Made by a program: the position numbers and the translations under genes. Positions 10,350-44,204 of a stretch of DNA of 64,000 nt are shown here, piece after piece. The notes beneath the pieces were generated by a model, which made no database searches, was not told where the DNA came from, and saw only the letters and a list, made by a program, of their open reading frames with translations. Positions within the stretch are counted from its first letter, which is position 1. Every line of letters begins with the position of its first letter. Source of the DNA: an uncultured cyanobacterium (GTDB lineage: Bacteria > Cyanobacteriota > Cyanobacteriia > PCC-9006 > JAAUQQ01); the NCBI GenBank assembly GCA_963718615.1, contig OY970368.1:384001-448000 (forward strand), read 5' to 3'.

Positions 10350-10539
10350 GGGGTAGGCTCCGGTAGAATTTCTGAGTATCAAAGTTTGCCTTTCTGGGTT
10401 CTATGACCGGGCGGGTTGCGGAGAAGATTCCAGGGCGGATCCGCTTCCTGAAGTGTCTATGGGAACTCCCGTTTGTCCGGATTGGGACGGGTCTGTCCTG
10501 AAGAAAACAAGTTGCCATTAGGACGTATAGTGGGAAAAC

Positions 10540-10695
10540 CAGGATGGTTTCTGGAGGGAACAGCTCCAGAAGGAAACGGGGAAAGCCAGTGTAAGTCTGG
10601 CGCTGTCCCGCAGCTGTAAGGTCGAGGATTGGTCTTTATGGGGTTTTGTGCCATGACCGCAGCCTTCACCAAGTCAGAATGCCCGCCATCAGGAC
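10540..10695 (+). ncRNA. Cobalamin riboswitch
   Basis: GGTTTCT...GGGGAAAGCCAGTGTAAGTCTGGCGCTGTCCCGCAGCTGTAA and the B12 box AAGTCAGAATGCCCGCC, upstream of hupE-cobW. Boundaries approximate. Confidence 0.9.
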
Positions 10696-10739
10696 TGTTC
10701 ACCGAATTAACATCTGCGCGGTACAGATGGGGAGACTTT

Positions 10740-31169: not shown

Positions 31170-31424
31170 CTACAGATTATAGAGGTAGTTGACAATGCCC
31201 TCCTCTGCTTTAATGACAGGCAAAAACAACTGATACTCCCATCCTTCTCCAGCAGGACGATCCTTTTTAGCGATGTAGTCTTGCCTTGGCCCCCCTTTTC
31301 CTTCCACGCCTGCATAACGTTCAACTGTGTGAAAAATGAATACTCTGGCGTAAGCGTAGCTGAGTAAGTATATGCACAGCATACCCAATAGAATCGGGAG
31401 TAATTTACTGTTTTTCTGCATCAT
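31170..31424 (-). CDS. Small hypothetical protein with N-terminal TM helix (probable second cassette of array A)
   Basis: MMQKNSKLLPILLGMLCIYLLSYAYAR...; lies directly downstream of attC-A. Confidence 0.55.
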   Translation of the reverse strand: MMQKNSKLLPILLGMLCIYLLSYAYARVFIFHTVERYAGVEGKGGPRQDYIAKKDRPAGEGWEYQLFLPVIKAEEGIVNYLYNL

Positions 31425-31572
31425 TGATCGAGTGAGTTGTGAAAATAGCGATCCTGTACTATACAAGATTTCACAGTTTGAGGCTCTAAAACAGGAACAC
31501 TGCAAGCTTAGAGAGGAGAATGAGGGTCTGAGGCGAGAGACTGAGGGGATGCCCAAACTGGGGAATTAAGCC

Positions 31573-31660
31573 GTCCAACGACCCCGTTCACCCGCCGCTG
31601 GCAATCTTTCGGACTCACCAACCAACTTGATTCGGTCGGTGTGCAACGGGATTGTTATAC
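31573..31660 (-). other. attC-like recombination site (attC-A, 88 bp)
   Basis: Minus strand: GTATAAC (R'') AAT CCCGTTGCAC ... GTGAACGGG GTC GTTGGAC (R'). The arms pair with one unpaired G; starts 11 bp after the stop of 31672-32547. Confidence 0.85.
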
Positions 31661-31671
31661 TGCGACCGCGA

Positions 31672-32547
31672 TCAGAATGGCTTGGAACGCCGTAAAAAAT
31701 TCTCTGCGAAAACTTCCGGTTGCCCTACTAACTCGCTATCGGGATCTTGGTTACGAAAGAGTAGCCCAATACCGAAGTCTTCATTTCCAAATTTTCGTTG
31801 CAGATACCTCCAATTTTCAATAAGGTAGCGCGAACTTCCAAGCGTTGCACTTGAACCAAGTCCGGCGCAAATAAAGACGCTGATCTTCTTGTCTACATCA
31901 TAAAATCTATGAATGAATGCAGGTTCTACACGCTGGTCACGACCTTCCCCGGTAATTGAATCTGCTAAACCATCTTGGCGAACACCCATCACTCGTTGAC
32001 CTTTATTGTCTTTAGTATGATAAAAATAAAAGCGATAAATTTCATCATACTTTGGAAAATAATCGTTTAAATAATAGTGCGATAAGCTGTTATATATGCC
32101 AGTACCTAAGATGATCAGGTTGCTACTGAATGCTGAGTTTCTGTTGCTAACAATTTGTTTTGTTGGGCTAATTCTAATAGGAGCATCAATGGCTCTTAGC
32201 TCTAAATTTTCTTGACCCAACCAGTCCTGTAGCTTTTTAGAAAACAGAGCAAGTGGTTTATCTTTCAGTTCATGCTGTATAAGTAGCGCACCATCATACT
32301 CTAGTTTAGTAATGGCAGAGCCAACATAACCCTTGTCAATCTTTTCAATGCCTGATGTACCTCCAGGTTGAATATTCAAATTAGAAACGTAGATGCAAAC
32401 ATTTGGATTAGAACTGGTGATTCCGAAGAAGCGTAAAATTCTATTTCTATTTCTCAAATATAAAAAGGCGTAGACAATAAAGCCTATTAATGCAAAGATC
32501 AAGGCTGCAATTAGATTTGCTACGACATTAATTAATATTTCGTTCAT
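31672..32547 (-). CDS. Hypothetical protein, N-terminal TM helix plus alpha/beta domain (cassette gene)
   Basis: 291 aa, AT-rich; motifs 'NLIILGTGIYN' and 'VFICAGLGSSATLG'; family not recognised. Confidence 0.75.
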   Translation of the reverse strand: MNEILINVVANLIAALIFALIGFIVYAFLYLRNRNRILRFFGITSSNPNVCIYVSNLNIQPGGTSGIEKIDKGYVGSAITKLEYDGALLIQHELKDKPLALFSKKLQDWLGQENLELRAIDAPIRISPTKQIVSNRNSAFSSNLIILGTGIYNSLSHYYLNDYFPKYDEIYRFYFYHTKDNKGQRVMGVRQDGLADSITGEGRDQRVEPAFIHRFYDVDKKISVFICAGLGSSATLGSSRYLIENWRYLQRKFGNEDFGIGLLFRNQDPDSELVGQPEVFAENFLRRSKPF

Positions 32548-32595
32548 ACAGCTACTTCACATCATTTTTATTTAAGTCGTTTTACTCATCTAGCT

Positions 32596-33387
32596 TTACG
32601 TTGAGCCAAGACAAGATTGTTGCCATTTGTATAGGAAATTAATTAGCTCTTCAGGTGGTTTTATCCACATATCTGCATGAGTCAAACGTAACTGTTCACG
32701 CACTAAGACATTTAACCCTCTTTGACTAAGAACTTTGAACGCATCTTCATCGGTATAGTCATCTCCCAAATAAGCAATTGGAACATTCTCTTCTAAATCC
32801 TTGATAATAGAATTTACTGCTGTCCCTTTATCTTTTCCATTTACGCGAATTTCTATTCCACCATCAAAATCATGAACTTTTAGGTTTGATGACTTTTCTA
32901 AATCTTGCCAATAATTTAAAACTTGCGCCTGAATAGAATCAGCTATATCTGATGACAGACCTCGCCAATGAAGAGCTAAGCTGACAGGTTTCTGCTCACA
33001 ATATTTTGTGAGTTTTAGCGATTTAATATGCTCTTTGGCTTGGGAAAGTGCTTGTCTTGTATGCTCATCAAGAGAAGCAATTACATAATTTCCATCAGCA
33101 AGATGTTCCCATCCATGAGATCCCCAAATCTCTGGCAGGGGATCTATATGAAGCAAGGGAACCAAATCTTGTACTGCCCGCCCGCTGATAATTACAACTC
33201 GCGATAGCTGATTGCGACAAATTTCACCTAACAACTCAGGAACACCCGTATATGGAAATGCTTGATCTCGCTCTACACGAAAAGGGGCAAGCGTACCATC
33301 GTAATCCAGCAATAAGAGGCGTCTCCTTGCCGTTGTGACTTTTCTAAAAAATGCCTCTATATCAAGACCTTTCGATAGGATCTCCAT
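32596..33387 (-). CDS. otsB: Trehalose-6-phosphate phosphatase-like HAD hydrolase (cassette gene)
   Basis: 'LLLDYDGTLAP', 'ISGR', 'GSHGWE', 'DKGTAV', 'YLGDDYTDEDAF'. Confidence 0.85.
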   Translation of the reverse strand: MEILSKGLDIEAFFRKVTTARRRLLLLDYDGTLAPFRVERDQAFPYTGVPELLGEICRNQLSRVVIISGRAVQDLVPLLHIDPLPEIWGSHGWEHLADGNYVIASLDEHTRQALSQAKEHIKSLKLTKYCEQKPVSLALHWRGLSSDIADSIQAQVLNYWQDLEKSSNLKVHDFDGGIEIRVNGKDKGTAVNSIIKDLEENVPIAYLGDDYTDEDAFKVLSQRGLNVLVREQLRLTHADMWIKPPEELINFLYKWQQSCLGST

Positions 33388-33512
33388 CCATTTACGCCTT
33401 GCTTTAGATAACTTAGTTTTTCTCTTGTGAAATCTAACAGATTTTTGATGGGGTGGCTACAGCATTACAGATGGCTTCTCAGTTAAGCCTTAGCTGACCA
33501 TCAGAGCCGTAT

Positions 33513-33813
33513 AACAACTTATTCTCATGCACAATGCCTGATAACTCCCCCCTGCCGGTATTTTCAAGCGCCAACGCCGTATAATCCCCAGTCTCAGCCA
33601 GTTATCCAGGCAATCATGCTGGATAACACCCCCTGTTGGGTATTATCAGGCAAAGCTGCATGATAACAACCCGTTTCCAGGTATTATCCCAGCAGCGACG
33701 CCCGATAACACCCCTGTTCAGGTATTATCAGGCATGTCTCAGTATAATATTATTCTCTTCAACCCAGCGTAGAAAATGACAAAATCTTCACCAACAGCTC
33801 AGCACTCTAGACC
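33513..33813 (-). repeat. 301-bp attI-like platform, copy A
   Basis: Colinear with 43904-44204 (offset 10391 at both ends). Homology stops at minus-strand ...GAGAATAAGTTGTT|ATAC; contains ~41-bp periodic GATAAC...TATTATC units. Confidence 0.8.
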
Positions 33814-33921
33814 AGACCTCTTGCATGAATGCTAAACGACATTTTGGTCGAGTTCCAAGTTGTATAGGGAAGCAATCAGGTTGAAGCGCAAACCAAACCG
33901 CTTGCGACGATTGCGATAGCG
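33814..33921 (-). mobile_element. 3' end of IS702-like (IS5/ISL2 group) element
   Basis: Terminal IR agacctcttgcatgaat (33814-33830); transposase C-terminus RYRNRRKRFGLRFNLIASLYNLEL (33921-33832). Confidence 0.85.
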
Positions 33922-34080
33922 CTAAGAAACTGGTGAAATTGATGCTGGAAGAGAGTTTTAGCCATCCTTACCTTTGGAGCACTACCAAATAGCGAAAAAT
34001 GCTTGAAACCCTTATTTGGGGGCACGTATAAAGAATCTGGCGATCCTTATTTCAGTGGCATTGAGCTTTAGTTTATTTCG

Positions 34081-34800
34081 CTACAGCAAATTCGCGGGGG
34101 GATTTTCAGGCACAACCCAGTAGTAGATCGTTCTGCCATCTATTTCTACGGTCTGATCGGGCTTCCACTCTCCCATATCAAACGCATGAGAAACAATGCG
34201 TGTACCTGGTTTTAATTCGCGCAGGAGTTTGGGACGCAGCTTCACGTTGAGTTCTGGCAACAAGTACAGTGTAACAACAGTGGCATCGCTGAAGTCAGCC
34301 TGAAACAAATCTTGCTGACGGAACTCAACAAGGTCACTCACACCAGCTGTTTGAGCCTTCTCATTCGCCTCTCGAATGCGTTCGGGGCTAATATCAATCC
34401 CAATTCCGCGTGCGCCGCGCTGTTGAGCTGCTGTAATCACAATTCGCCCATCGCCGCTCCCCAAATCGTAAACCAGATCATTAGATTGCACATTTACCAA
34501 CCGTAGCATTTCATTCACAACCGTCATGGGCGTTGGAACGTATATCACATCAGGTTTGCGGGTGGGAGATTCTGTTGTGGGGGTAGGAACGACTTGAGCC
34601 TGATCGGAAGAAGGAGCAGTTTGGACGTTAGCATCTGGACCTTGGGCCTCTGCTTCAAAGTTACGGAGTTGGGTACAGCCAACTCCCGCAAGACTAAAAA
34701 CGCCAATTCCCGCAAGACTAAGAGCGCTAATGCCAACCCGTAGCGATCGCAGCGTGGATTGAAGCACAGTGGATTTGAACAGCGTAGATTGAAGTTTCAT
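34081..34800 (-). CDS. Class I SAM-dependent methyltransferase with signal/lipoprotein-like N-terminus
   Basis: 'PDVIYVPTP', 'YDLGSGDGRIV', 'ATVVTLYLLPELN', 'PGTRIVSH'. Confidence 0.9.
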   Translation of the reverse strand: MKLQSTLFKSTVLQSTLRSLRVGISALSLAGIGVFSLAGVGCTQLRNFEAEAQGPDANVQTAPSSDQAQVVPTPTTESPTRKPDVIYVPTPMTVVNEMLRLVNVQSNDLVYDLGSGDGRIVITAAQQRGARGIGIDISPERIREANEKAQTAGVSDLVEFRQQDLFQADFSDATVVTLYLLPELNVKLRPKLLRELKPGTRIVSHAFDMGEWKPDQTVEIDGRTIYYWVVPENPPANLL

Positions 34801-34831
34801 GATTTTGATCTCCTAAAAAAAGAGGACTGAA

Positions 34832-36190
34832 TTATTCGGTACGACGGATAAAGGGAAGACCCAGTAATACGACGATGACTCCTGCGATTGCGCCGATGCC
34901 GGTATAAACCAGACTAGAGTAGAGTAAATAACCACAGATGGCGCAGAATAGGGTGGGAACAATCGGATAAAGCGGTACACGAAACGGACGGGAGCGATTA
35001 GGTTCCCGAATTCGAAAAACGATCAATGACAGGGTGCTGAGCAAAAAGAAAAACCAGAAGATGGGGGCAGTATAGTCCACCATTGTCTCGAACCCTTGAC
35101 GGGTCAAACTTCCCAGCCCAAGCAGGGTGAGTGCGATCGCCCCTTGCAACAAATAAGCGGTTGTGGGTGAACTGGGTTTCGGGTGCCATTGTCCTAGCCA
35201 GTGGAATGAAGACACATCCTGCCCCAGAGCAAAGCTAGTGCGGGCACCTGTCAAGAGGGTTGCATTGATTGACCCTAGCGTTGCAATCACAACCAGCCAA
35301 CTCACAAATGCAGCTCCCGGTTCACCCAAAGTCTGCCGCACTAAATCTGCTGCAACCGCTTGGGAGTCCGCCATACCTGCCACACCCAATCCCCGTAGGT
35401 ATGCTAGGTTAATCAACAGATAAATCCCCGTGATGATGCCAATGCTCCAGAGAAGAGATCGCCCGATATTCCGCTGAGGATTTTGGATTTCCGCAGAAAT
35501 GTAAGCCGCTTCATTCCACCCCCCATAGGACAGCAGCACAAAGACTAAAGCTAAACCCCAGGAGGGCGGAGAGGCAGAAGGAGCATTGGGAGCAACAGAA
35601 GCAGAGGTGGAAAAGCCAAGCCCCAAGAGGATAACCAGCAGTAATCCTAACAGGAGAAACACGGCTAACCAGTTCTGAAGTCCTTTGCTTTGGCGCAGTC
35701 CAATGATGTTAAGCGCAGTCAGCAGCGAGATCGTCCCCGCCGCATAAATGGAAGGCGAGTAGCCCCCTAGCGGCAATAGCTGCGAAGCATAATCGCCAAA
35801 GATAAATGCTAACAGTGCGATCGATCCAGGTTGAATCACAGTCATGCGTGCCCAGGCAAACAGAACTGCGATCGGTTGTCCAAAGGCTCGCTTCAGATAG
35901 TAGTAATTGCCACCGACATGGGGGTAGGCAGTCGCGAGTTCCGCATAGCACAATGCCCCCAACAGGGACACAATACCCCCTATTAGCCAGACTCCAATAA
36001 CACCGCCAACCGTTCCAGTATTGGCAGCGACTAGAGCTGGCGTTTCAAAAATACCTGCGCCGATCACCAATCCTACGATTAAGGTGATCGCATCAACCGA
36101 AGTAAGAGAAGGACGTGGAACTGTATTACCAGGTTGATTGCGCTCCAGTAGTGCAGAGTTTTCTAATCTAGTCACAGTTCTCCTTATCAA
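34832..36190 (-). CDS. APC family amino-acid permease
   Basis: 'IGAGIF', 'GALCYAELA', 'SYGGWNE', 'RPFRVPLYP'; many TM helices. Confidence 0.92.
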   Translation of the reverse strand: MIRRTVTRLENSALLERNQPGNTVPRPSLTSVDAITLIVGLVIGAGIFETPALVAANTGTVGGVIGVWLIGGIVSLLGALCYAELATAYPHVGGNYYYLKRAFGQPIAVLFAWARMTVIQPGSIALLAFIFGDYASQLLPLGGYSPSIYAAGTISLLTALNIIGLRQSKGLQNWLAVFLLLGLLLVILLGLGFSTSASVAPNAPSASPPSWGLALVFVLLSYGGWNEAAYISAEIQNPQRNIGRSLLWSIGIITGIYLLINLAYLRGLGVAGMADSQAVAADLVRQTLGEPGAAFVSWLVVIATLGSINATLLTGARTSFALGQDVSSFHWLGQWHPKPSSPTTAYLLQGAIALTLLGLGSLTRQGFETMVDYTAPIFWFFFLLSTLSLIVFRIREPNRSRPFRVPLYPIVPTLFCAICGYLLYSSLVYTGIGAIAGVIVVLLGLPFIRRTE

Positions 36191-36619
36191 TGACTAAAAG
36201 TTATGTCCAATGCCCAGCCGTAAGCCAACTTATGGTTTCCCCAAAAATCCAACATTGACCCCCGCATTGGCTGTGGGCTGAACCGTTAGAGGAACATGGA
36301 CACCGCCTTTCACCAATACGTACACAGTGCTTCTCTGCCAGTCGAAATGAAGGTTTCCCCGCCAGCGCAAGGCGTTAGGCTGATCCACTCATTGGCATTC
36401 AGACATTGGGATGACAGACTCAGACATCAAAGGCTTAATTTGCAAACTAATGCCTGAAGCATCAGCCATACCGAGTGCAGCCGATTGCCTGCTAAGTAAC
36501 GAGCAACATTTCTGCTAGACCCGAAATAACAAAGAATCGCTTGAAGCGTAGAGCATTCATCACAAAAATTTGTCAATGACAATAGCAAGATTTAAGTCTT
36601 ACTCTTATGGTCAACAATA

Positions 36620-36641
36620 AATGTGACTTAAAAGTGACAGG
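36620..36641 (-). promoter_or_regulatory. OmpR/PhoB-type direct-repeat box (putative)
   Basis: Minus strand CTGTCAC-tttt-AAGTCAC with 11-bp period, upstream of the permease-methyltransferase unit. Confidence 0.4.
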
Positions 36642-36694
36642 ATTTAGGGATGAAGCATGATTTTGAACTTTTCTCAAATTCAAACCACAGTTCA

Positions 36695-37611
36695 GAGGAT
36701 ATTTGGAAAGTAAGAAAAAGCTCATGCAAGTCTACGTAGCATAAGTCTGATCATGGCAATGTGTATGAAAGCCTCAGAGGATTCGGACAAGCATTCATAA
36801 TCGACGTTGAGCCGACGACACCAACAAAGCCAGCCATAGGTTCGTTCGACCATCCAGCGCTTTGGCAGCAGCACAAAACCCTTGGCATGATCGGGACGAA
36901 GCACCCCTTCTAAAATCCAGCAAAAGTTATCGATAACCCAGCAGAGACAGTCTTTGCCTGAGAATCCACCATCGACTCAAATTCTAGCTAACCGTGGAAC
37001 GCGTTCTCTTTCGTCATCAAGCTTATGGAGCAATTGCTTGGCCCCTTCTCGCTCTGGAACATTGGCAGCGACCCCGTGGACCATAATCAATAATCCTAGG
37101 GTGTCGACGAGGGTAAAGCGCTTGCGTCCTTTGGTTTTCTTGCCTGCGTCATAGCCTACCTGATGGCGAACCATCACGGCAGTGGGAACAGTTTGAGAAT
37201 CCAGACTGCCAGCACTGGGACTGGGGTGTCGGTCTTGGTCAACGCGGCGGCACCAAGTAACGAGCTTGTCATGCACCCGTTTCCAAGTGCCATCATCGCG
37301 CCACTGACTGAAGGAGTAGTAGACAGTGGAATAGGGAGGATAGTCCTTGGGCAACAATCGCTAAGCACAACCACTGACCAGAATATAGAGGATGCCTTGT
37401 ATGACCCACTTCAGGTTGACTTGCCTGGGACGTCCCCCTGGCTTACTCGCCGCAAGCAGGCTCAATAGCAGCTCCCACTGGTCAGAGGTCAGTTCACTAG
37501 AGTAGGCTGCTGTCATGGCTTTTCGGGGGGGTGAGGTTGGGTTATTTCAACCTAATACCCAAGAAGCTTTTCTTCTACACTGGTGCTCAACGCTACTTTC
37601 TAAATATCCTC
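36695..37611 (-). mobile_element. IS5 family (IS1031 group) insertion sequence, 917 bp
   Basis: IRs gaggatatttggaaagta / tactttctaaatatcctc (17/18 match), flanked by a TCA target duplication. Confidence 0.92.
36722..37516 (-). pseudogene. IS5 transposase pseudogene
   Basis: Single frame from MTAAYSSELTSDQW to RRLA with two in-frame stops at usual Trp positions (GCA*R, RI*VDGG); DSQTV, GYDAGKK and KRWMVERT motifs. Confidence 0.9.
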
Positions 37612-37631
37612 TCAAGCTACAGTGATTCAAC

Positions 37632-38909
37632 TTACAGACGGTGTTCCACCGACAGTTGTAAGGAAAATTCAATTTGAAACAGTGAACCCTTTCCAACTTG
37701 GCTGCTCACCGTTAACCGTCCACCATGCGCTTCCACAATTTGCTGCGCGATCGCCAATCCCAGTCCAGCACCACCTTTCTCTCGTGTTCGTTCCTCATCA
37801 ACCCGGTAAAATCGATCAAAAATACGCAATAAATCTAGTTCTGAAATACCAACTCCCGTATCTTCTACCTGAATTAAAATGCAATGATATTGATTCACTA
37901 GCCGTAACCATACCGCTCCATTAGGTAAGGTATATTTACAAGCATTGATCAATAGATTGGTGATAGCTTGTTTTAGCAACTCAGGGTTGCCTTGGATAAT
38001 ACTATTCTCTTTAGGCAGTTCTAAATGAATGATTAGATGTTGGGCAGCAAATTGTATCGCTGAAGTGATGATCGTCTCTTCCAATAAGTTATTTAAGTTA
38101 ATTAATTGAACCGAGTTTGAGTCTAACTGCCCTGGCTGTCGTGCCAAAAATAGGAGATCGGTCACGAGCCGATTCATTAGCTTGGTCGCTTCAGCAATCT
38201 TTTCTAACCGAGTGTGTTTAGGCTTACCTGCATCAACTGGACTTAGTAAGCCAACTTGAGCATTACTGAGAATTGTGGCAAGGGGTGCTCTTAGTTCATG
38301 GGATGCATCAGACGTAAACCGTTCTAGTTGAGCGTAAGCGTCCCGAATCGGATACATCGCCAAACCACTTAGTACCCAACCGGTGAGGCTGATTGCTCCT
38401 AACGTCAGAGGGACTGCCAGCATCATCATGATGAGTAGGTCTCTGAGTGTATCTTGAGCTTCAGTTAGCGGAAGAGCAATCTGAAGGTAGCCTATTGTGC
38501 GTCCGTCGTAGTCAACCGGGAGCGTTAATTGGCGCAGCCATTCGGAATCTGATTGAATCGTTTCAAAAGCCGCGCTCGTCTGAATTTGATCGAGGGGCTG
38601 CACTCCATAAAACTGCCGTATTTTTCCGACCTTTGAGTACCAACGAGCGTAAACAATCTCACTATCTGAGGGAGGAAAATAATTTCCTAAGATCGGAACG
38701 TTACTGAGATCAAGGTGTTCTTTTCCCTGCTGCCGCTGGTAGCTGATATTAGCTGCCATGATTCTTGCTTTTTTGTAGAGTAGGCGATCAATCTCTTCCA
38801 GACGCTCGATTGATCGCTGGTAATAAAAAATGCTGGCAAACAAAATTAAAATGCTACCCATCGATAGCGTAAACCAATGGGCAAGATTACGGCGACTACG
38901 ATTGAACAT
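37632..38909 (-). CDS. Sensor histidine kinase (RppB/NrsS-like)
   Basis: Two TM helices; 'DASHELRAP' H-box; N, G1 (DTGVG) and G2 (GAGLGL) boxes. Confidence 0.93.
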   Translation of the reverse strand: MFNRSRRNLAHWFTLSMGSILILFASIFYYQRSIERLEEIDRLLYKKARIMAANISYQRQQGKEHLDLSNVPILGNYFPPSDSEIVYARWYSKVGKIRQFYGVQPLDQIQTSAAFETIQSDSEWLRQLTLPVDYDGRTIGYLQIALPLTEAQDTLRDLLIMMMLAVPLTLGAISLTGWVLSGLAMYPIRDAYAQLERFTSDASHELRAPLATILSNAQVGLLSPVDAGKPKHTRLEKIAEATKLMNRLVTDLLFLARQPGQLDSNSVQLINLNNLLEETIITSAIQFAAQHLIIHLELPKENSIIQGNPELLKQAITNLLINACKYTLPNGAVWLRLVNQYHCILIQVEDTGVGISELDLLRIFDRFYRVDEERTREKGGAGLGLAIAQQIVEAHGGRLTVSSQVGKGSLFQIEFSLQLSVEHRL

Positions 38910-39576
38910 TTGGATTTAATCGATAACCCATGCCATATATTGTTTCCAGCCAATCAACAGCGCCTATGGCCCGCAATCGTTGTCGCAGCCGATACACTAA
39001 TGCAGTAATAGCATTACTCTCTGGCTCGCTGCCCCATTCCCACAAGGCTTGTTCAATCTGGTCGCGGGAAAGTACCTGCCGAGGATGACGCATGAGATAC
39101 TCTAGAAACTGAAATTCGCGAGTAGACAGTTGAAGACTCTGCTCACCCCGTTCTACTGTCAATGTCGATAAGTGCAGGGTTAGATCTTCAATGTGCAGCA
39201 TATCCCCTTCCCAGAGAGGTGATCGTCGTCCTAATGCCCGCACCCGTGCCAGCAATTCAAACACATCAGCAGGTTTGACGAGATAATCATCTGCTCCAGC
39301 ATCCAAACCGCTAATTTTGTCTGGAGTGGCATCTTTTGCGGTCAGCAGTAGCACTGGAGAAGTTTTTCCTAGTTGGCGATAGTGTTGACATAGGCTAAAG
39401 CCACTGACGTGAGGTAATAACCAATCTAGAATTAATAGATCGTACTCCCGCTTCGATAAGATCCACTGAGCGATCTCACCATCCTCCACACCATCCACAA
39501 TATGCCCTGCTTGAGAGAGGGCAGCCTGAAGCGGCTCCAGTTGACTCGCATCATCTTCTACTAGCAGGATTCGCAT
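38896..39576 (-). CDS. OmpR family response regulator (RppA-like)
   Basis: 'MRILLVEDD', 'LDWLLP', 'GADDYLVKP', winged helix 'ETIYGMGYR'; overlaps the kinase start. Confidence 0.95.
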   Translation of the reverse strand: MRILLVEDDASQLEPLQAALSQAGHIVDGVEDGEIAQWILSKREYDLLILDWLLPHVSGFSLCQHYRQLGKTSPVLLLTAKDATPDKISGLDAGADDYLVKPADVFELLARVRALGRRSPLWEGDMLHIEDLTLHLSTLTVERGEQSLQLSTREFQFLEYLMRHPRQVLSRDQIEQALWEWGSEPESNAITALVYRLRQRLRAIGAVDWLETIYGMGYRLNPNVQS

Positions 39577-39723
39577 TAGTCCAACTATAGTTCTGCACAA
39601 TGCATCATAGATGAAACGATTGAAGGGCAGCGTCCCCCAGAGGTGCGATTTAACTTACTGTATTGCTGAATAAAATTTATTTATTCAGTTTCCACCTCAC
39701 TCCTCCGATTCTCTTAAAATCCC

Positions 39724-40113
39724 ATGTTTGTTCCGCGCATACTACGGCTTCTCCATTGCACTGGCTGGGAATTCTGGCTGCCTCTGCCCTTTATTTCGGC
39801 ATTATTTTGGTTTACAGGTAACTTTGCAGTTGCAGAGATACTAAACCGCTCTTATGGATCTGTCATCAAACTCCAGGCAGATATGCAAATGGATGTAAGG
39901 CCTTCCCGGACAATCCTATCTATGAATGCAGAAATTGATCGCAGCCGAGGTGTGAGCACGATTTTTGTCAGAATCACCGATTTAACGTTGGGGGAATTAA
40001 AATATGAGTTCCCAGTTACCCAAGCTAGTGAAATAGAGACAGCGATCGCTCAGAAACTAGAACTATCTACTGAAAACATCCGCAAGCTGCTCAGGTATCG
40101 ACTTGTAGACTGA
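39724..40113 (+). CDS. Hypothetical cyanobacterial protein with N-terminal TM
   Basis: 'EFWLPLP...FW' N-terminal segment; divergent from the two-component pair. Confidence 0.6.
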   Translation: MFVPRILRLLHCTGWEFWLPLPFISALFWFTGNFAVAEILNRSYGSVIKLQADMQMDVRPSRTILSMNAEIDRSRGVSTIFVRITDLTLGELKYEFPVTQASEIETAIAQKLELSTENIRKLLRYRLVD

Positions 40114-40260
40114 GTGGACTCAGTAAACGCATTCGGAACGGGCTAAGGTCGTTTCAGCCCATCAATGCCCAGTCTGTTCAGTCGTGGGGCGCATTTCGGT
40201 TTCGGTTTTGTGACACCGTGGGCATTCTCGACCCCCTGATATCAAATGTCAATTACTTTG

Positions 40261-40931
40261 AGTTCTTGGCAGCTTTGGGTGATCCTTTATAGAAAGCACA
40301 GTTGCATTTCCCCTCTAGCTCAACTGGAGAACAAGAAGCGTTTGCTCAACAAATCTAGACCAGCTCGACCATACATTTGTCGTTTGAGCATTTTTAACTG
40401 ATTGACCAGTCCTTCCACTGGCCCATTGCTCGTTTCCAAAGTCATGCTTGCTTTGACGGCTTCATAGTCCTCAAATAGCCTCTCGGCAAACCTTTGAAGC
40501 AGGTGTGCATCTTCTGGGTATCGATTTTCTTCCTTTTGCATGGTCAGATAGGTTACGCGTCGTGGGGTCAGTGGTGGATTTTGAGGGTCAATGACGTTCG
40601 GTAGCCCTTCAGTGGAAACTGAGCGCCTTGAACCAAGACTTTGAGCTTGGCGGATTCGAGGCAGGTAGCGTGTTAATGTTCGAGCACCTCCTGAATATCC
40701 CTTCTGTTAGAGGAGCTTCAATAACACTTGAGGACGGGTGATTCCGTCGTTCCACAATTGCAGCAAATAGTCTTTATAGGGATTGAGAAGGCTCAATCCG
40801 AAGGTATTCCGCCTTTTAGGTTCCGGTGTCTGAGGTTTTTGCGGATAACGTTGAACACTTTTTATACTCACTCCGACCCGTTGAGCAATCTCAGTGAGTG
40901 GTAAGTTTTGCTGATGCAGCTTCCAGATCTG
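40261..40931 (-). mobile_element. ISL3 family transposase remnant (3' part, internally deleted)
   Basis: 'SNGPVEGLVNQLKMLKRQMYGRAGLDLL'; upstream 'EIAQRVGVSIKSVQRY' and 'LLNPYKDYLLQLWNDG' with a stop; terminal gttcttggcagctttgggtga. Confidence 0.85.
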
Positions 40932-41248
40932 TCACATGCTCGATCTTGACCCGTAGCTTCCCTAACTCTCGGTTGTAAACTTTCTGCGTCTCACTCAGCT
41001 TACCCCCCCTGGGTTTCTTCACCGGGGTGAAGCCCGGTTGCCCACTCCGCTGACCCGCTTTGGGCAGGTGCGGGCGTAAGTCATTGGCTAGACGTTCAAA
41101 CGTCTCTGGCTTGATTCCGCTGTAACGACGAAACTCTCCAGGTTTGAGGGGTTTGAGTTGGCTGTAGTGCATGGCGATCGCAAGGTCACTTTCTTACTCT
41201 TCAACCCCAATTTCTCTCTCTCGCTCCGGCTATTCGTGCAAGAGGTCT
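40932..41248 (-). mobile_element. 5' end of IS702-like element, internally deleted
   Basis: IR attcgtgcaagaggtct (41232-41248); ORF MHYSQLKPLKPGEFRRYSGIK... jumps to 'PVKKPRGGKLSETQKVYNRELGKLRVKIEHV'. Confidence 0.85.
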
Positions 41249-41461
41249 AATAGTGTCTTTTGATAGTGTTAAACCAGTTTTTTCCTATCCATATTGAAAT
41301 AGATGGTTGTGCTTAGTCCACACAACTAAAGCTAGATAACGACAAAGTTGAGCAGAAATGAGAGAACTCGAAGGTAGACGAGAAGATTGTGGATTGCCGC
41401 TCCAAAAACTGGTTCACTAGCAGCCCTTACCGAGATCTCCAACGTATAAATCATCGTGATT

Positions 41462-42895
41462 TTAGGGTTGGTAGCCGAGTTTTGTGAGGGCTGCTGCTGC
41501 ACTCGACCGCACTTCTTTATCCGGATCTTTGAGTGCAACAATGAGTGCTGGAACTGCTTCTTGAGCAGATTCCCCTATTTGACCTAATGCAATTGCTACA
41601 CTCAAACGTACCTCCTTATCTGGATCTTTGAGTGCAATGATGAGTGCCGGAACCGCAGGTTTCGCAGATCCTACAATCCCAAATGATTCAAATTTAAGCG
41701 ATTCGAAATCAACTAAGTATTCCGAGTCTTCGGGTAGAACTATAGGGTCAGGCACCTCCCTGGTGACTCCTGTTATATCATCTAATGCCGATTGTGCTTC
41801 AAATTGCACGAGGCTATCTGCGTCTTTGAGTACAGCAATAAGTGCCGGAACTGCTGCTTTGGCAGATTCTCCGATTCGGCCTAATGCCCATGCTGCACTC
41901 GAGCGCACGTCCAGATCTGGGTCTTTGAGTGCGGTAATGAGTGCCGGAACTGCTGCTTTTGATGATTCTCCGATTTGGCTTAATGCCCATGCTGCACTCG
42001 AGCGCACTTCCTTATCTGAGTCTTGGAGAGCCGTGGCGAGTCCCGGAACCGCCACTTTGGAAGATTCTCCGATTCGGCCTAATGCCCATGCTGCACTCGA
42101 GCGCACATCCAGATCTGGGTCTTTGAGTGCGGTAATGAGTGCCGGAACTGCTGCTTTTGATGATTCTCCGATTTGGCCTAATGCCCATGCTGCACTCGAG
42201 CGCCCTTGTGCCTCGGAGTCTTTGAGCGCAATGATGAGTGCCGCTTTGCCCGATTCTCCGATTCGGCCTAATGCTTCTGCTGCACTCGAGCGCACTTGTG
42301 CGTCAGGGTCTTTGAGCGCGATAATGAGCTTAGGAACTGCTTCCTTGGCTGGTTCTCCTATTCGTCCTAAAGCAATTGCTACGCTCGAGCGCACTTGTGC
42401 CTCGGGGTCTTTGAGCGCGATAATGAGCTCAGGAATTGCTTCCTTAGCTGGTTCTCCTATTTGTCCTAAAGCAATCGCTACGCTCGAGCGCATCTGTGGA
42501 GATGAATCTTTGATCGCTGTGATGAGTTCAGGAATCGCTGTTTTTGCAGACTCTCCGATCTCACCCAATACTTCTGCTGCATTTTGTCGAACACAGTTAT
42601 CTAGTAAAAATGAAATGTATTCGCATTGCTCTGGGTGTCTGAGTGCAAAGATAAGTTTAGGAACCGCTGTTTTTGCAGATTCTCCAATGTCGCCTAGCCC
42701 CTTGGCTCCACTCGATCTCACTTTTGAATCGGTTGAGGCCAAGTCTTGGATTAATTGCTTGATTTTCTGAGGAGCAATAATTTCTGATGACAAGGGTCGA
42801 AAAGGATCTGCTCGGACCACTGAAATCGGAACTACAATTTGAACCATAGTTACAAATACGATGGAGAGAAGTTTGTAGCGCAATCGCATCTTCAT
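41462..42895 (-). CDS. HEAT-repeat (PBS lyase-like) protein with signal peptide
   Basis: Many 33-aa 'ALKD....VRSSAA.ALG.IGE..K.AVP.L' repeats. Confidence 0.92.
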   Translation of the reverse strand: MKMRLRYKLLSIVFVTMVQIVVPISVVRADPFRPLSSEIIAPQKIKQLIQDLASTDSKVRSSGAKGLGDIGESAKTAVPKLIFALRHPEQCEYISFLLDNCVRQNAAEVLGEIGESAKTAIPELITAIKDSSPQMRSSVAIALGQIGEPAKEAIPELIIALKDPEAQVRSSVAIALGRIGEPAKEAVPKLIIALKDPDAQVRSSAAEALGRIGESGKAALIIALKDSEAQGRSSAAWALGQIGESSKAAVPALITALKDPDLDVRSSAAWALGRIGESSKVAVPGLATALQDSDKEVRSSAAWALSQIGESSKAAVPALITALKDPDLDVRSSAAWALGRIGESAKAAVPALIAVLKDADSLVQFEAQSALDDITGVTREVPDPIVLPEDSEYLVDFESLKFESFGIVGSAKPAVPALIIALKDPDKEVRLSVAIALGQIGESAQEAVPALIVALKDPDKEVRSSAAAALTKLGYQP

Positions 42896-42971
42896 TGCAA
42901 ACCTACCTAAATCAAAAATTTTGAGTTGCCTAAATACAATCAGTTAAAGTTGCCAAATCGCTTTTACTAAT

Positions 42972-43053
42972 TAGACTTCCTGCATGAACCGAAAACCAGC
43001 GACGTAGTCATAAGGATTTTAGCCTGCAAACATGGGTCTGTACAAAAGGTCTA
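42972..43053. mobile_element. 82-bp MITE-like element with IS702-like ends
   Basis: tagacttcctgca ... tgtacaaaaggtcta imperfect IRs resembling agacctcttgca. Confidence 0.55.
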
Positions 43054-43139
43054 TTGAATAAGCTATAGATCAAAAAAACCATGACAATCAACGTAAAAAT
43101 ACTTGTTCAATGACTGCTCCAATCTAAACGACAATTTCA

Positions 43140-43227
43140 AGCTAACGTTGCCCATCACCCGCTGTAGTCGACCTGAAATACAAACAACTAACCTTTGGAC
43201 GGTCGATGTGCATGGGCATTGTTCGGC
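43140..43227 (-). other. attC-like recombination site (attC-B, 88 bp)
   Basis: Minus strand: GCCGAAC (R'') AAT GCCCATGCAC ... GTGATGGGC AAC GTTAGCT (R'). The arms pair with one unpaired G; starts 14 bp after the stop of 43242-43787. Confidence 0.85.
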
Positions 43228-43241
43228 TGCGTGTGTTAGTT

Positions 43242-43787
43242 TTATGCTTCATGATTTTCGGGAGGCTTACAGAAACGCAGTATTATATTCAAAGCAAGAG
43301 CTGGTAGAAGAGGTAGCTTTAAGAACCGACTTCCTCCTTTAACCTCACTTTCCCAAAATTTACCATTATCGTATCGCAACCGTAATGATTCCCCCTGAAG
43401 CAATAGTCCAGGCATCGAAGGATTGTACATTGCTGGCAAACTTGTACCTTTTGGAAAAATTCTGAGAAGATCCTCCGAGCTATTTACTTCTGCTTTCGAC
43501 TTTAAAGGAGGAATCAAGCGTTCTTTATGTCCGTCCACAGTACCAATTAGCCAATAACTCGCCAAACTATCCGAGCTAGAATCATACGTTCCATCTATCA
43601 CCATAAAAGAAACCGGACGATAACCTGCTGAATTCATATACAGCATTATTCGGTTACAGCTAGAAGGTAGACAGAGAATCGCCCACCACATCGCAAAACT
43701 TGTGGTTTTCTTTGCAAGACTGTAGATCCGCAATGGCGGACTTCTTAAAGCTGGACTCATAGGCTTTACAACTAAATCTTTTTGCAC
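43242..43787 (-). CDS. Hypothetical protein (cassette gene of array B)
   Basis: 181-aa ORF with hydrophobic segments near both ends, filling the interval between platform B and attC-B. Confidence 0.6.
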   Translation of the reverse strand: MQKDLVVKPMSPALRSPPLRIYSLAKKTTSFAMWWAILCLPSSCNRIMLYMNSAGYRPVSFMVIDGTYDSSSDSLASYWLIGTVDGHKERLIPPLKSKAEVNSSEDLLRIFPKGTSLPAMYNPSMPGLLLQGESLRLRYDNGKFWESEVKGGSRFLKLPLLPALALNIILRFCKPPENHEA

Positions 43788-43903
43788 TGCATGTATGTCT
43801 ATAGACGACGATAAGACTTATGCAGAAATTTACGTTTTTTTACAAATCAGTAAGTACTTGCCATCGTTCTGGCTGCTTATAATGACGCTAAATTGAGTGG
43901 TCG

Positions 43904-44204
43904 AACAACTTATTCTCATGCACAATGCTTGATAACTCCCCCCTCTCGTCATTCTCAACCACCAGCGCCCCATAATCCCCAGCAATGGTACATTATCCAC
44001 GCAATCATGCTGGATAACACCCCCGTACAGGTATTGCCAGGCAAAACTGCACGACAACAACCCATTTCCAGACATTATCCCAGCATAGCCGCCGGATAAA
44101 ATCCCTATACAGGTATTATTAAGTATGTCTCAGTATAAGCTTACCCTCTTCGACCCAGCGTAGAAAATTACAAAACCTTCACCAACAGCTCAGCACTTTA
44201 GACC
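43904..44204 (-). repeat. 301-bp attI-like platform, copy B
   Basis: Diverged colinear copy of 33513-33813; homology stops at minus-strand ...GAGAATAAGTTGTT|CGAC. Confidence 0.8.

Follow-up and report, generated by a model that had tools for sequence, protein, structure and literature searches.

Two copies of a 301-bp element lie in the 64,000-nucleotide stretch of an uncultured cyanobacterial genome analyzed here (the window; positions 384001-448000 of the source genome G000, 6,095,823 bases), and they are very probably the attI (integron attachment site) platforms of once-complete integrons that have lost the integrase gene intI and kept their cassettes. They belong to an 11-member family in this genome. 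Homology of the platform to copies that adjoin intI, a breakpoint common to the copies, one shared family of attC (cassette attachment) sites, and the footprint of cassette insertion support this reading directly. An integron integrase would have been the agent of insertion, and the platform may have been retained for cassette expression, for use as a landing site, or for both.

A platform family beside integrase remnants

Copies A (33512-33812, minus strand) and B (43904-44204, minus strand) were 82.4% identical over 301 nt (E 6.9e-83) and scored 314.7 and 276 bits, respectively, in nhmmer profile searches. Their similarity ended at GTT|ATAC (33515-33509) in A and at GTT|CGAC (43906-43900) in B, exactly where the initial annotation of this stretch had seen two colinear copies stop at an identical minus-strand GTT. 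Beyond the shared GTT stood unrelated genes, each set closed by an attC site. The same annotation had described both copies as noncoding and the window as free of tyrosine recombinase genes. The former holds for copy A, in which no open reading frame (ORF) of 50 aa or more was found, and a coding function of the platform is therefore unlikely; the caveat is an 81-aa ORF (43830-44075) in copy B. The latter was confirmed by profile searches, as neither PF00589 nor TIGR02249 had a match within G000 384001-448000, and no integron-integrase gene adjoins either window locus.

BLAST and an nhmmer profile search of the genome located 11 platform loci. Seven are counted as full length, namely A (417.5 kb), B (427.9 kb), C (3906.9 kb), D (3859.3 kb), E (4713.9 kb), F (1015.3 kb), and G (4096.9 kb, with one unit deleted), and four are degraded, namely I, J, K, and H, the last consisting of the 3′ part 2.7 kb behind K. 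The genes downstream of each copy were co-oriented with it and unrelated between copies. All seven full-length platforms terminated at ...AAGTTGTT(A); whether in the two window copies or elsewhere in the genome, full-length platforms lost similarity just past the GTT, in most cases past GTTA. The same GTT(A) end occurred in four platform copies of G003, the second genome in which full platforms occur. The expectation that all copies would break at one GTT in front of differing cassettes was thus borne out for the seven full-length copies.

Contigs from other sequencing runs gave supporting evidence, the matches being a small share of each run. In run X4, from a related organism, three platform records were found whose matches stopped at 33512 with differing sequence beyond, and four loose ends beyond 33512 agreed at only 0.57. 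Many contigs in three metagenome runs, all from one study, shared the attC of cassette A alone, with both flanks differing; pieces of cassette A differed by 3-13 letters per 175-482 aligned bases, and in one of them the match ended at 33515 and the contig extended 29 letters more.

Some sibling copies still adjoin integrase sequence. Fragments matching TIGR02249 directly abut platforms D (3859666-3860405), E (4713688-4713822 and 4712672-4712758), and J (4646232-4646402) on the strand opposite to the platform, which is the divergent layout of an integron. At D, the intI ATG lies 40 bp past the platform, and the gene is frameshifted and has lost the IntI-specific insertion. Platforms F, G, I, and K retain only the first ~7-8 intI codons, although K may keep more in heavily decayed form. 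No intI residue was found at A, B, and C; in B and C, alignable sequence extends ~43 bp more to the left than in A, about to the expected start codon. Beside one more intI remnant, at 1.907 Mb, nhmmer found no platform copy. Two of the checks proposed with the initial annotation, namely whether any copy abuts intI and whether an integrase profile finds a gene elsewhere, were therefore both positive, as TIGR02249 identified a single intact intI at G000 948656-949594 (443.8 bits; cut-off 265), 531 kb from the window loci. Because sibling copies adjoin intI remnants, the 301-bp element is the stretch separating intI from the first cassette, in other words attI. Judged by sequence, the window repeats correspond to attI as a site next to intI with its crossover at G|TT.

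Each platform would once have been part of a complete integron of one paralogous type, here termed type B, the platform being the intergenic stretch between intI and the first cassette and ending at the attI crossover ...AAGTTG|TT. Cassettes would have arrived as circles whose attC recombined with attI between G and TT. The integrase gene would then have decayed (D, E, J, and K) or been deleted (F, G, I, H, A, B, and C), and the platform and its cassettes would have outlasted it.

Several arrangements around the platforms were also observed. The platforms tend to be loosely paired along the genome, with H/K at 292-295 kb, A/B at 417-428 kb, D/C at 3859-3907 kb, and J/E at 4646-4714 kb. At locus L018 (G000 288652-299531), K and H stand in tandem, 2.7 kb apart; the decayed K is followed by HEC-01 A and B, and H by a gene for a GNAT acetyltransferase, the partial remnant of an attC, and gcvP. 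A dispersed repeat of ~85-98 bp (33814-33911, minus strand) abuts the left end of platform A, with other copies at G000 306571-306668 and 3909500-3909583, a copy lying inverted ~2.3 kb behind platform C; one X4 contig fuses the attC end (31577) to this repeat in the opposite orientation. A second repeat of 64 bp lies just upstream (~33923-33986) and has at least five other genomic copies.

Cassettes, attC sites, and the insertion footprint

Cassette A comprises 1936 bp (31579-33514, minus strand) between the attI GTT and the G of the attC R′ box, and cassette B 760 bp (43146-43905, minus strand); both previously proposed lengths were reproduced from the sequence. The attC of cassette A (~88 nt; 31573-31660, minus strand) has R″ GTATAAC at 31660-31654 and R′ GTTGGAC at 31579-31573, and that of cassette B (~88 nt; 43140-43227, minus strand) has R″ GCCGAAC at 43227-43221 and R′ GTTAGCT at 43146-43140. 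They scored 89.6 and 90.7 bits, respectively, against covariance model R1, of which both are training members, as R1 was built from nine attC sites found in this genome by a loose motif search.

The alignment of the nine sites showed invariant cores, a 16-pair stem, and three single-base bulges on the R″-L″ arm, with compensatory double changes at 4 of the 16 stem pairs. R1 detected 22 genomic sites at E ≤3e-4, comprising the nine training sites and 13 others, among the latter sites at platforms D, G, and J and at the intI remnant at 1.907 Mb. The 22 sites sit behind platforms A, B, C, D (three sites), G, I, and J; four further sites lie behind the intI remnant at 1.907 Mb and eight elsewhere in the genome. 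A good attC was thus present within ~4 kb of 7 of the 11 platforms. An R1 search with filters off added a weak site at E and a partial one at H, and found none behind F and K. The attC-like sites that had been noticed at the ends of the window ORFs therefore stand as members of one attC family with a conserved stem, bulges, and compensatory changes. Both correspond to the attC pattern of an imperfect palindrome with extrahelical bases and an R′ box GTTRRRY, the R′ boxes being GTTGGAC and GTTAGCT.

A circular cassette that joins attI between G and TT starts, for that reason, with the complement of its own R″ box. When the cassette start was compared with the reverse complement of R″, cassette A matched at 7/7 positions (GTTATAC/GTATAAC) and cassette B at 6/7 (GTTCGAC/GCCGAAC), as first reported for this pair. 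At the sibling platforms, the matches were 8/9 at C, 6/7 at D, 5/7 at G, and 11/11 at I. The footprint was hence found at all six platforms that were scored, which are those with a clear junction and an attC; platform E gave ~6/7 against its weak attC. The matches past the fixed GTT exceed chance by far.

Cassette A carries two genes on the minus strand. The first (32596-33387) encodes a 263-aa trehalose-phosphatase-like HAD-IIB hydrolase (PF02358, 81.3 bits; TIGR00685, 102.8 bits with a cut-off of 68.05), and the second is a 291-aa ORF (31672-32547) whose product matched nothing in Pfam, PADLOC, NCBIfam, or the PDB sequences. The single gene of cassette B, an ORF of 181 aa (43242-43787, minus strand), likewise had no match in these four collections. 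PADLOC found no defense system in either window cassette. Past the attC of cassette A lies a putative 128-aa ORF (31170-31556, minus strand), called as an ORF only, with no attC of its own and no family match; it is uncertain whether it is a real gene or part of the system. Close behind cassette B, and also without its own attC, a 477-aa HEAT/PBS-lyase repeat protein is encoded at 41462-42895 (minus strand) by a gene made of 99-bp tandem units in 7-10 copies. Elsewhere in the window, a cobalamin riboswitch at 10528-10704 (plus strand; 59.8 bits versus a gathering score of 31.5) was the sole Rfam match at the gathering threshold.

Defense genes were found at sibling platforms. Platform K is followed by HEC-01 A and B, E by CARF_HEPN_mCpol, D by a Schlafen/AlbA_2 protein, F by PDC-S45 and a STAND-type ATPase, and G by an IetA-like ATPase with AbiEi_2 and PDC-M21B. 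The CARF_HEPN_mCpol gene at E (locus L015, G000 4709882-4718168) is split into parts of 129 and 348 aa by an IS1-type insertion carrying InsA and DDE_Tnp_IS1 ORFs.

Anatomy and conservation of the platform

From the integrase side, the platform consists of a box of ~30 nt, TATACT, five units, and the core GCATGAGAATAAGTTG|TT. In copy A (all on the minus strand), alignments place the box, nearly invariant in all copies and putatively a promoter/operator region, at 33763-33792. TATACT (33741-33746), invariant in 10/11 copies holding this part, is −10-like and directed towards the cassettes, and the opposite strand reads TATAAT towards the intI of sibling copies. Five imperfect inverted-repeat units with R-box-like arms occupy 33531-33733, with GATAA each 41 nt and GTTAT each ~40-42 nt. 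The attI core with the crossover GTT (G at 33515, TT at 33514-33513) lies at 33512-33530 and is identical or near-identical in copies A-G and in those of G003. In copies C, D, F, and G and the G003 copies, where the cassette starts with TTAG, the core holds a five-codon mini-ORF, ATG AGA ATA AGT TGT TAG (compare window 33527-33510, minus strand), whose stop is completed by the cassette; it has no convincing ribosome-binding site and may be due to chance.

GATAA occurs four times in copy A at exact 41-nt steps, and GTTAT five times, the last being the crossover, against a background of 0.6-0.9 per kb per strand for these motifs. The periodicity is based on motif positions and on self-matches at offset 82; Tandem Repeats Finder reported no array in platform A, nor in the attI of the intact integron. 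The arms of the units are similar to the R″ and R′ boxes of attC. Furthermore, the attI regions beside intact or near-intact intI genes (the type A integron of G000, and G001, G004, and G035) contain four to seven tandem units of ~37-41 bp with inverted arms, and the array ends in ...G|TTAG. The tandem-unit attI design is general for this clade, though the unit sequences differ.

In the attI1 of class 1 integrons, the crossover lies at the G|TT of the cassette-proximal GTT-R box, further R-box-like motifs stand towards intI, and two direct repeats, DR1 and DR2, serve as accessory integrase-binding sites within ~65 bp. The platforms appear to resemble attI1 in the cassette-proximal G|TT crossover and in the R-box-like motifs upstream towards intI. 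They appear to differ from it in having five units at strict 41-nt spacing, with two inverted arms each, over ~200 bp. By analogy with DR1/DR2, the 41-nt-spaced units with R-box-like arms are putative extra integrase-binding sites.

Platform DNA was found in 3 of the 8 genomes of the order and in 4 of the 41 relatives searched, G000 being included in both counts. The G003 copies interleave with the G000 copies in the tree. Platform D is 93% and platform A 87% identical to copy G003a, compared with 77% for the housekeeping gene putA between the same genomes. These values are signs of selection on the platform sequence, although horizontal exchange could yield the same picture. An exact-pattern scan of genome contigs matched only two contigs of one metagenome-assembled genome, and two such scans of metagenome contigs gave no match, diverged copies being missed by exact patterns. 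No recombination-type left boundary was seen in the copies without intI, as the homology between B and C continues through a nearby GTTAGCG-like motif.

Alternative readings and relation to known integrons

Several observations weigh against relic integrons as the explanation. Four of the 11 platforms have no good attC in reach (weak at E, partial at H, none at F and K), and the attC model was derived from the genome's own sites, including the two in the window. The single-sequence DNA fold energies of the window attC sites were weak (bottom-strand z −0.84 and −1.99); attC identity is supported by the family evidence and not by the thermodynamics of single sites. The −10-like TATACT has no matching −35, and no promoter of the sigma-70 type exceeded the shuffled background, the scans giving 7 and 2 sites versus 6.0 and 3.0 expected; terminator scans likewise did no better than shuffles. 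The conservation baseline is one gene, putA. No intact cognate (type B) integrase was found by TIGR02249 searches of G000 or of G003, whose assembly is 88% complete and whose best match was partial, at 103.6 bits, and below the cut-off. Finally, the relic reading does not account for the presence of platforms without intI at as many as 11 places.

The initial annotation had proposed a distributed integron, with dispersed platforms capturing cassettes by means of an integrase encoded elsewhere. As an active system, this would mean live platforms served in trans, as many short arrays, by the single intact integrase 531 kb away, which we consider doubtful. Much of the proposal was found to be in place, namely attI-type platforms, attC cassettes inserted at G|TT, and an intact intI at a distance. 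The intact IntI matches the integron-integrase model over its whole length, with both the IntI-specific insertion and the C-terminal tyrosine motif present. Its own integron is nearly empty, with one weak attC-like match (E 0.58), and thus close to In0 (an integron with intI and no attC), the cassettes being at the type B platforms. Both attI types are alike near the crossover, A/T-rich and then G|TTAG, and the noncoding platform is better conserved between genera than putA. Moreover, platforms A and C share 96.8% identity, both lack intI, and their cassettes are unrelated. This fits cassette turnover after integrase loss, but also gene conversion between repeats, which takes from its weight as an argument for service in trans.

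Other observations speak against service in trans. The intact IntI is only 65% identical, over 171 residues, to the protein of the remnant beside platform D, and nhmmer found no member of the platform family beside the intact intI at 948 kb, the attI region there being unrelated and its accessory units not alignable with those of the platforms. In addition, G003 retains platforms, with no integrase above the cut-off in its incomplete assembly. As the intact IntI is a different paralogue with its own, different attI, service in trans is at most a possibility, and, no intact type B integrase having been found in either genome, the platforms are not claimed to be active today. The cassettes may have been inserted by the lost type B integrases or by the surviving paralogue. 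Given that the sibling copies show descent by intI loss, relic integrons are at least as well supported as an integron distributed by design. At the intact locus, two further features were noted. An 874-aa gene (locus L030 11358-13982, minus strand) follows the attI after a weak, ORF-less attC-like element, and the intact IntI (L030 14636-15607, plus strand) has a proline in the conserved HSFA-x-HLL stretch, at a position occupied by threonine in the G001 orthologue and in the D remnant.

Only tentatively do we put forward a further proposal, in which the attI platform would be a self-standing, selected module. Copies without integrase would spread and be maintained in different genera, each combining the roles of landing site and expression site, mostly for one defense-type cassette; a single diverged integrase encoded elsewhere would serve them, and the 41-nt units would form a scaffold to which several integrase molecules bind.

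We regard as improbable a role of the hairpin array chiefly at the RNA level, as a structured 5′ leader stabilizing or regulating cassette mRNAs and conserved for that purpose rather than for recombination. In the alignment, the cassette-direction strand folds better than its complement (−61.3 versus −41.8 kcal/mol), and G.T is the majority state at eight of its pair positions and A.C at none. Watson-Crick pairs vary to G.T at 17 positions and to A.C at 10, double compensatory changes occur at five, and the −10-like TATACT stands just upstream. The strand asymmetry is, however, modest and due mostly to a single T.G that is fixed in each unit and for which a protein contact is an equally good explanation, and the strict 41-nt step between GATAA motifs fits sites lying on the same side of a DNA duplex. 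Rfam 15 gave no match on either platform at E up to 1, and the promoter scans did not exceed chance. Such a leader would leave the intI remnants and the GTT footprint unaccounted for, and thus could be at most an added function.

It is highly improbable that the repeat is a small nonautonomous transposable element or another dispersed repeat that stands before cassettes by chance or insertion preference. Eleven dispersed copies with sharp ends, and the different ~85-bp dispersed repeat abutting copy A, would suit such an element. Against it, there are no terminal inverted repeats, the left side runs into intI at D, E, and J, the right end is the cassette-junction GTT with its R″ complementarity, and the orientation to the downstream genes is constant. 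Least probable of all is insertion of the cassettes at secondary genomic sites rather than attI; bioRxiv 10.1101/2022.09.11.507474 reports that integrases can also insert cassettes away from att sites, but the target here is always the same conserved element of 280-300 bp, the one adjoining intI. A type III toxin-antitoxin repeat RNA, an omega-RNA-like guide scaffold, a riboswitch or attenuator leader, and a miniature inverted-repeat transposable element had also been considered, on anatomy alone, and were dropped when intI remnants were found beside sibling copies.

Relic integrons, the reading that we prefer, have known relatives. Genomes with several integrons, intI pseudogenes, and attC clusters lacking an integrase, termed CALIN, are already described in PMC4889954 and PMC2426708, where pseudogenes make up about one-third of surveyed intI genes and more than one intI occurs in ~20% of the genomes with integrons. 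As in chromosomal integrons with decayed intI, an intI pseudogene here stands head to head with attI, followed by attC cassettes. Unlike in those, 11 platforms of one attI type share one genome, intI is deleted in seven of them with the attI region kept at high identity, the arrays mostly hold single cassettes, and the sole intact intI is of another type.

In PMC4889954, a CALIN is defined by at least two attC sites clustered at a 4-kb threshold with no intI nearby, In0 by intI without attC, and the proposed origins of CALIN are intI loss or service by an integrase encoded elsewhere. The window loci resemble CALIN in carrying attC cassettes without a neighboring integrase. They differ in holding one attC each, 11.6 kb apart, which is below the CALIN number, and in keeping attI; nor are they In0, as attC is present and intI absent. 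The window loci are thus outside the complete, In0, and CALIN classes as defined there, and the loci fit none of these three IntegronFinder classes because they mostly have one cassette each.

Integrons with phage-defense cassettes are reported in the accessible parts of bioRxiv 10.1101/2024.07.02.601719 and PMC12614218. The defense genes at the sibling platforms resemble these, whereas the window cassettes have no defense match and one encodes a trehalose-phosphatase-like protein. A limited search of the open-access literature found no description of integrase-less attI copies or of cyanobacterial attI structure. The present case differs from known ones in that the attI region itself is recognizable in 11 copies, intI is wholly lost in most, and the cassettes are mostly single.

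Integron surveys classify by intI and attC and omit attI, whose sequence is undetermined for most integrons according to the accessible text of PMC4889954. The genome studied here supplies a concrete attI for a clade of cyanobacterial integrases. It shows that an attI can persist after the loss of its integrase and that orphan platforms can occur in large numbers, with 11 in 6.1 Mb, each with one or few cassettes and several of these anti-phage. Since single-cassette loci without integrase fall in no class, the cassette content of such genomes would be undercounted. The window cassettes add three proteins in a context that predicts accessory or defense roles. Continued use of the platforms in trans would call for a dispersed variant of the textbook scheme, in which a single integrase serves a single attI and array, and if the attI module is self-standing, the integron would consist of one locus for the enzyme and many for capture.

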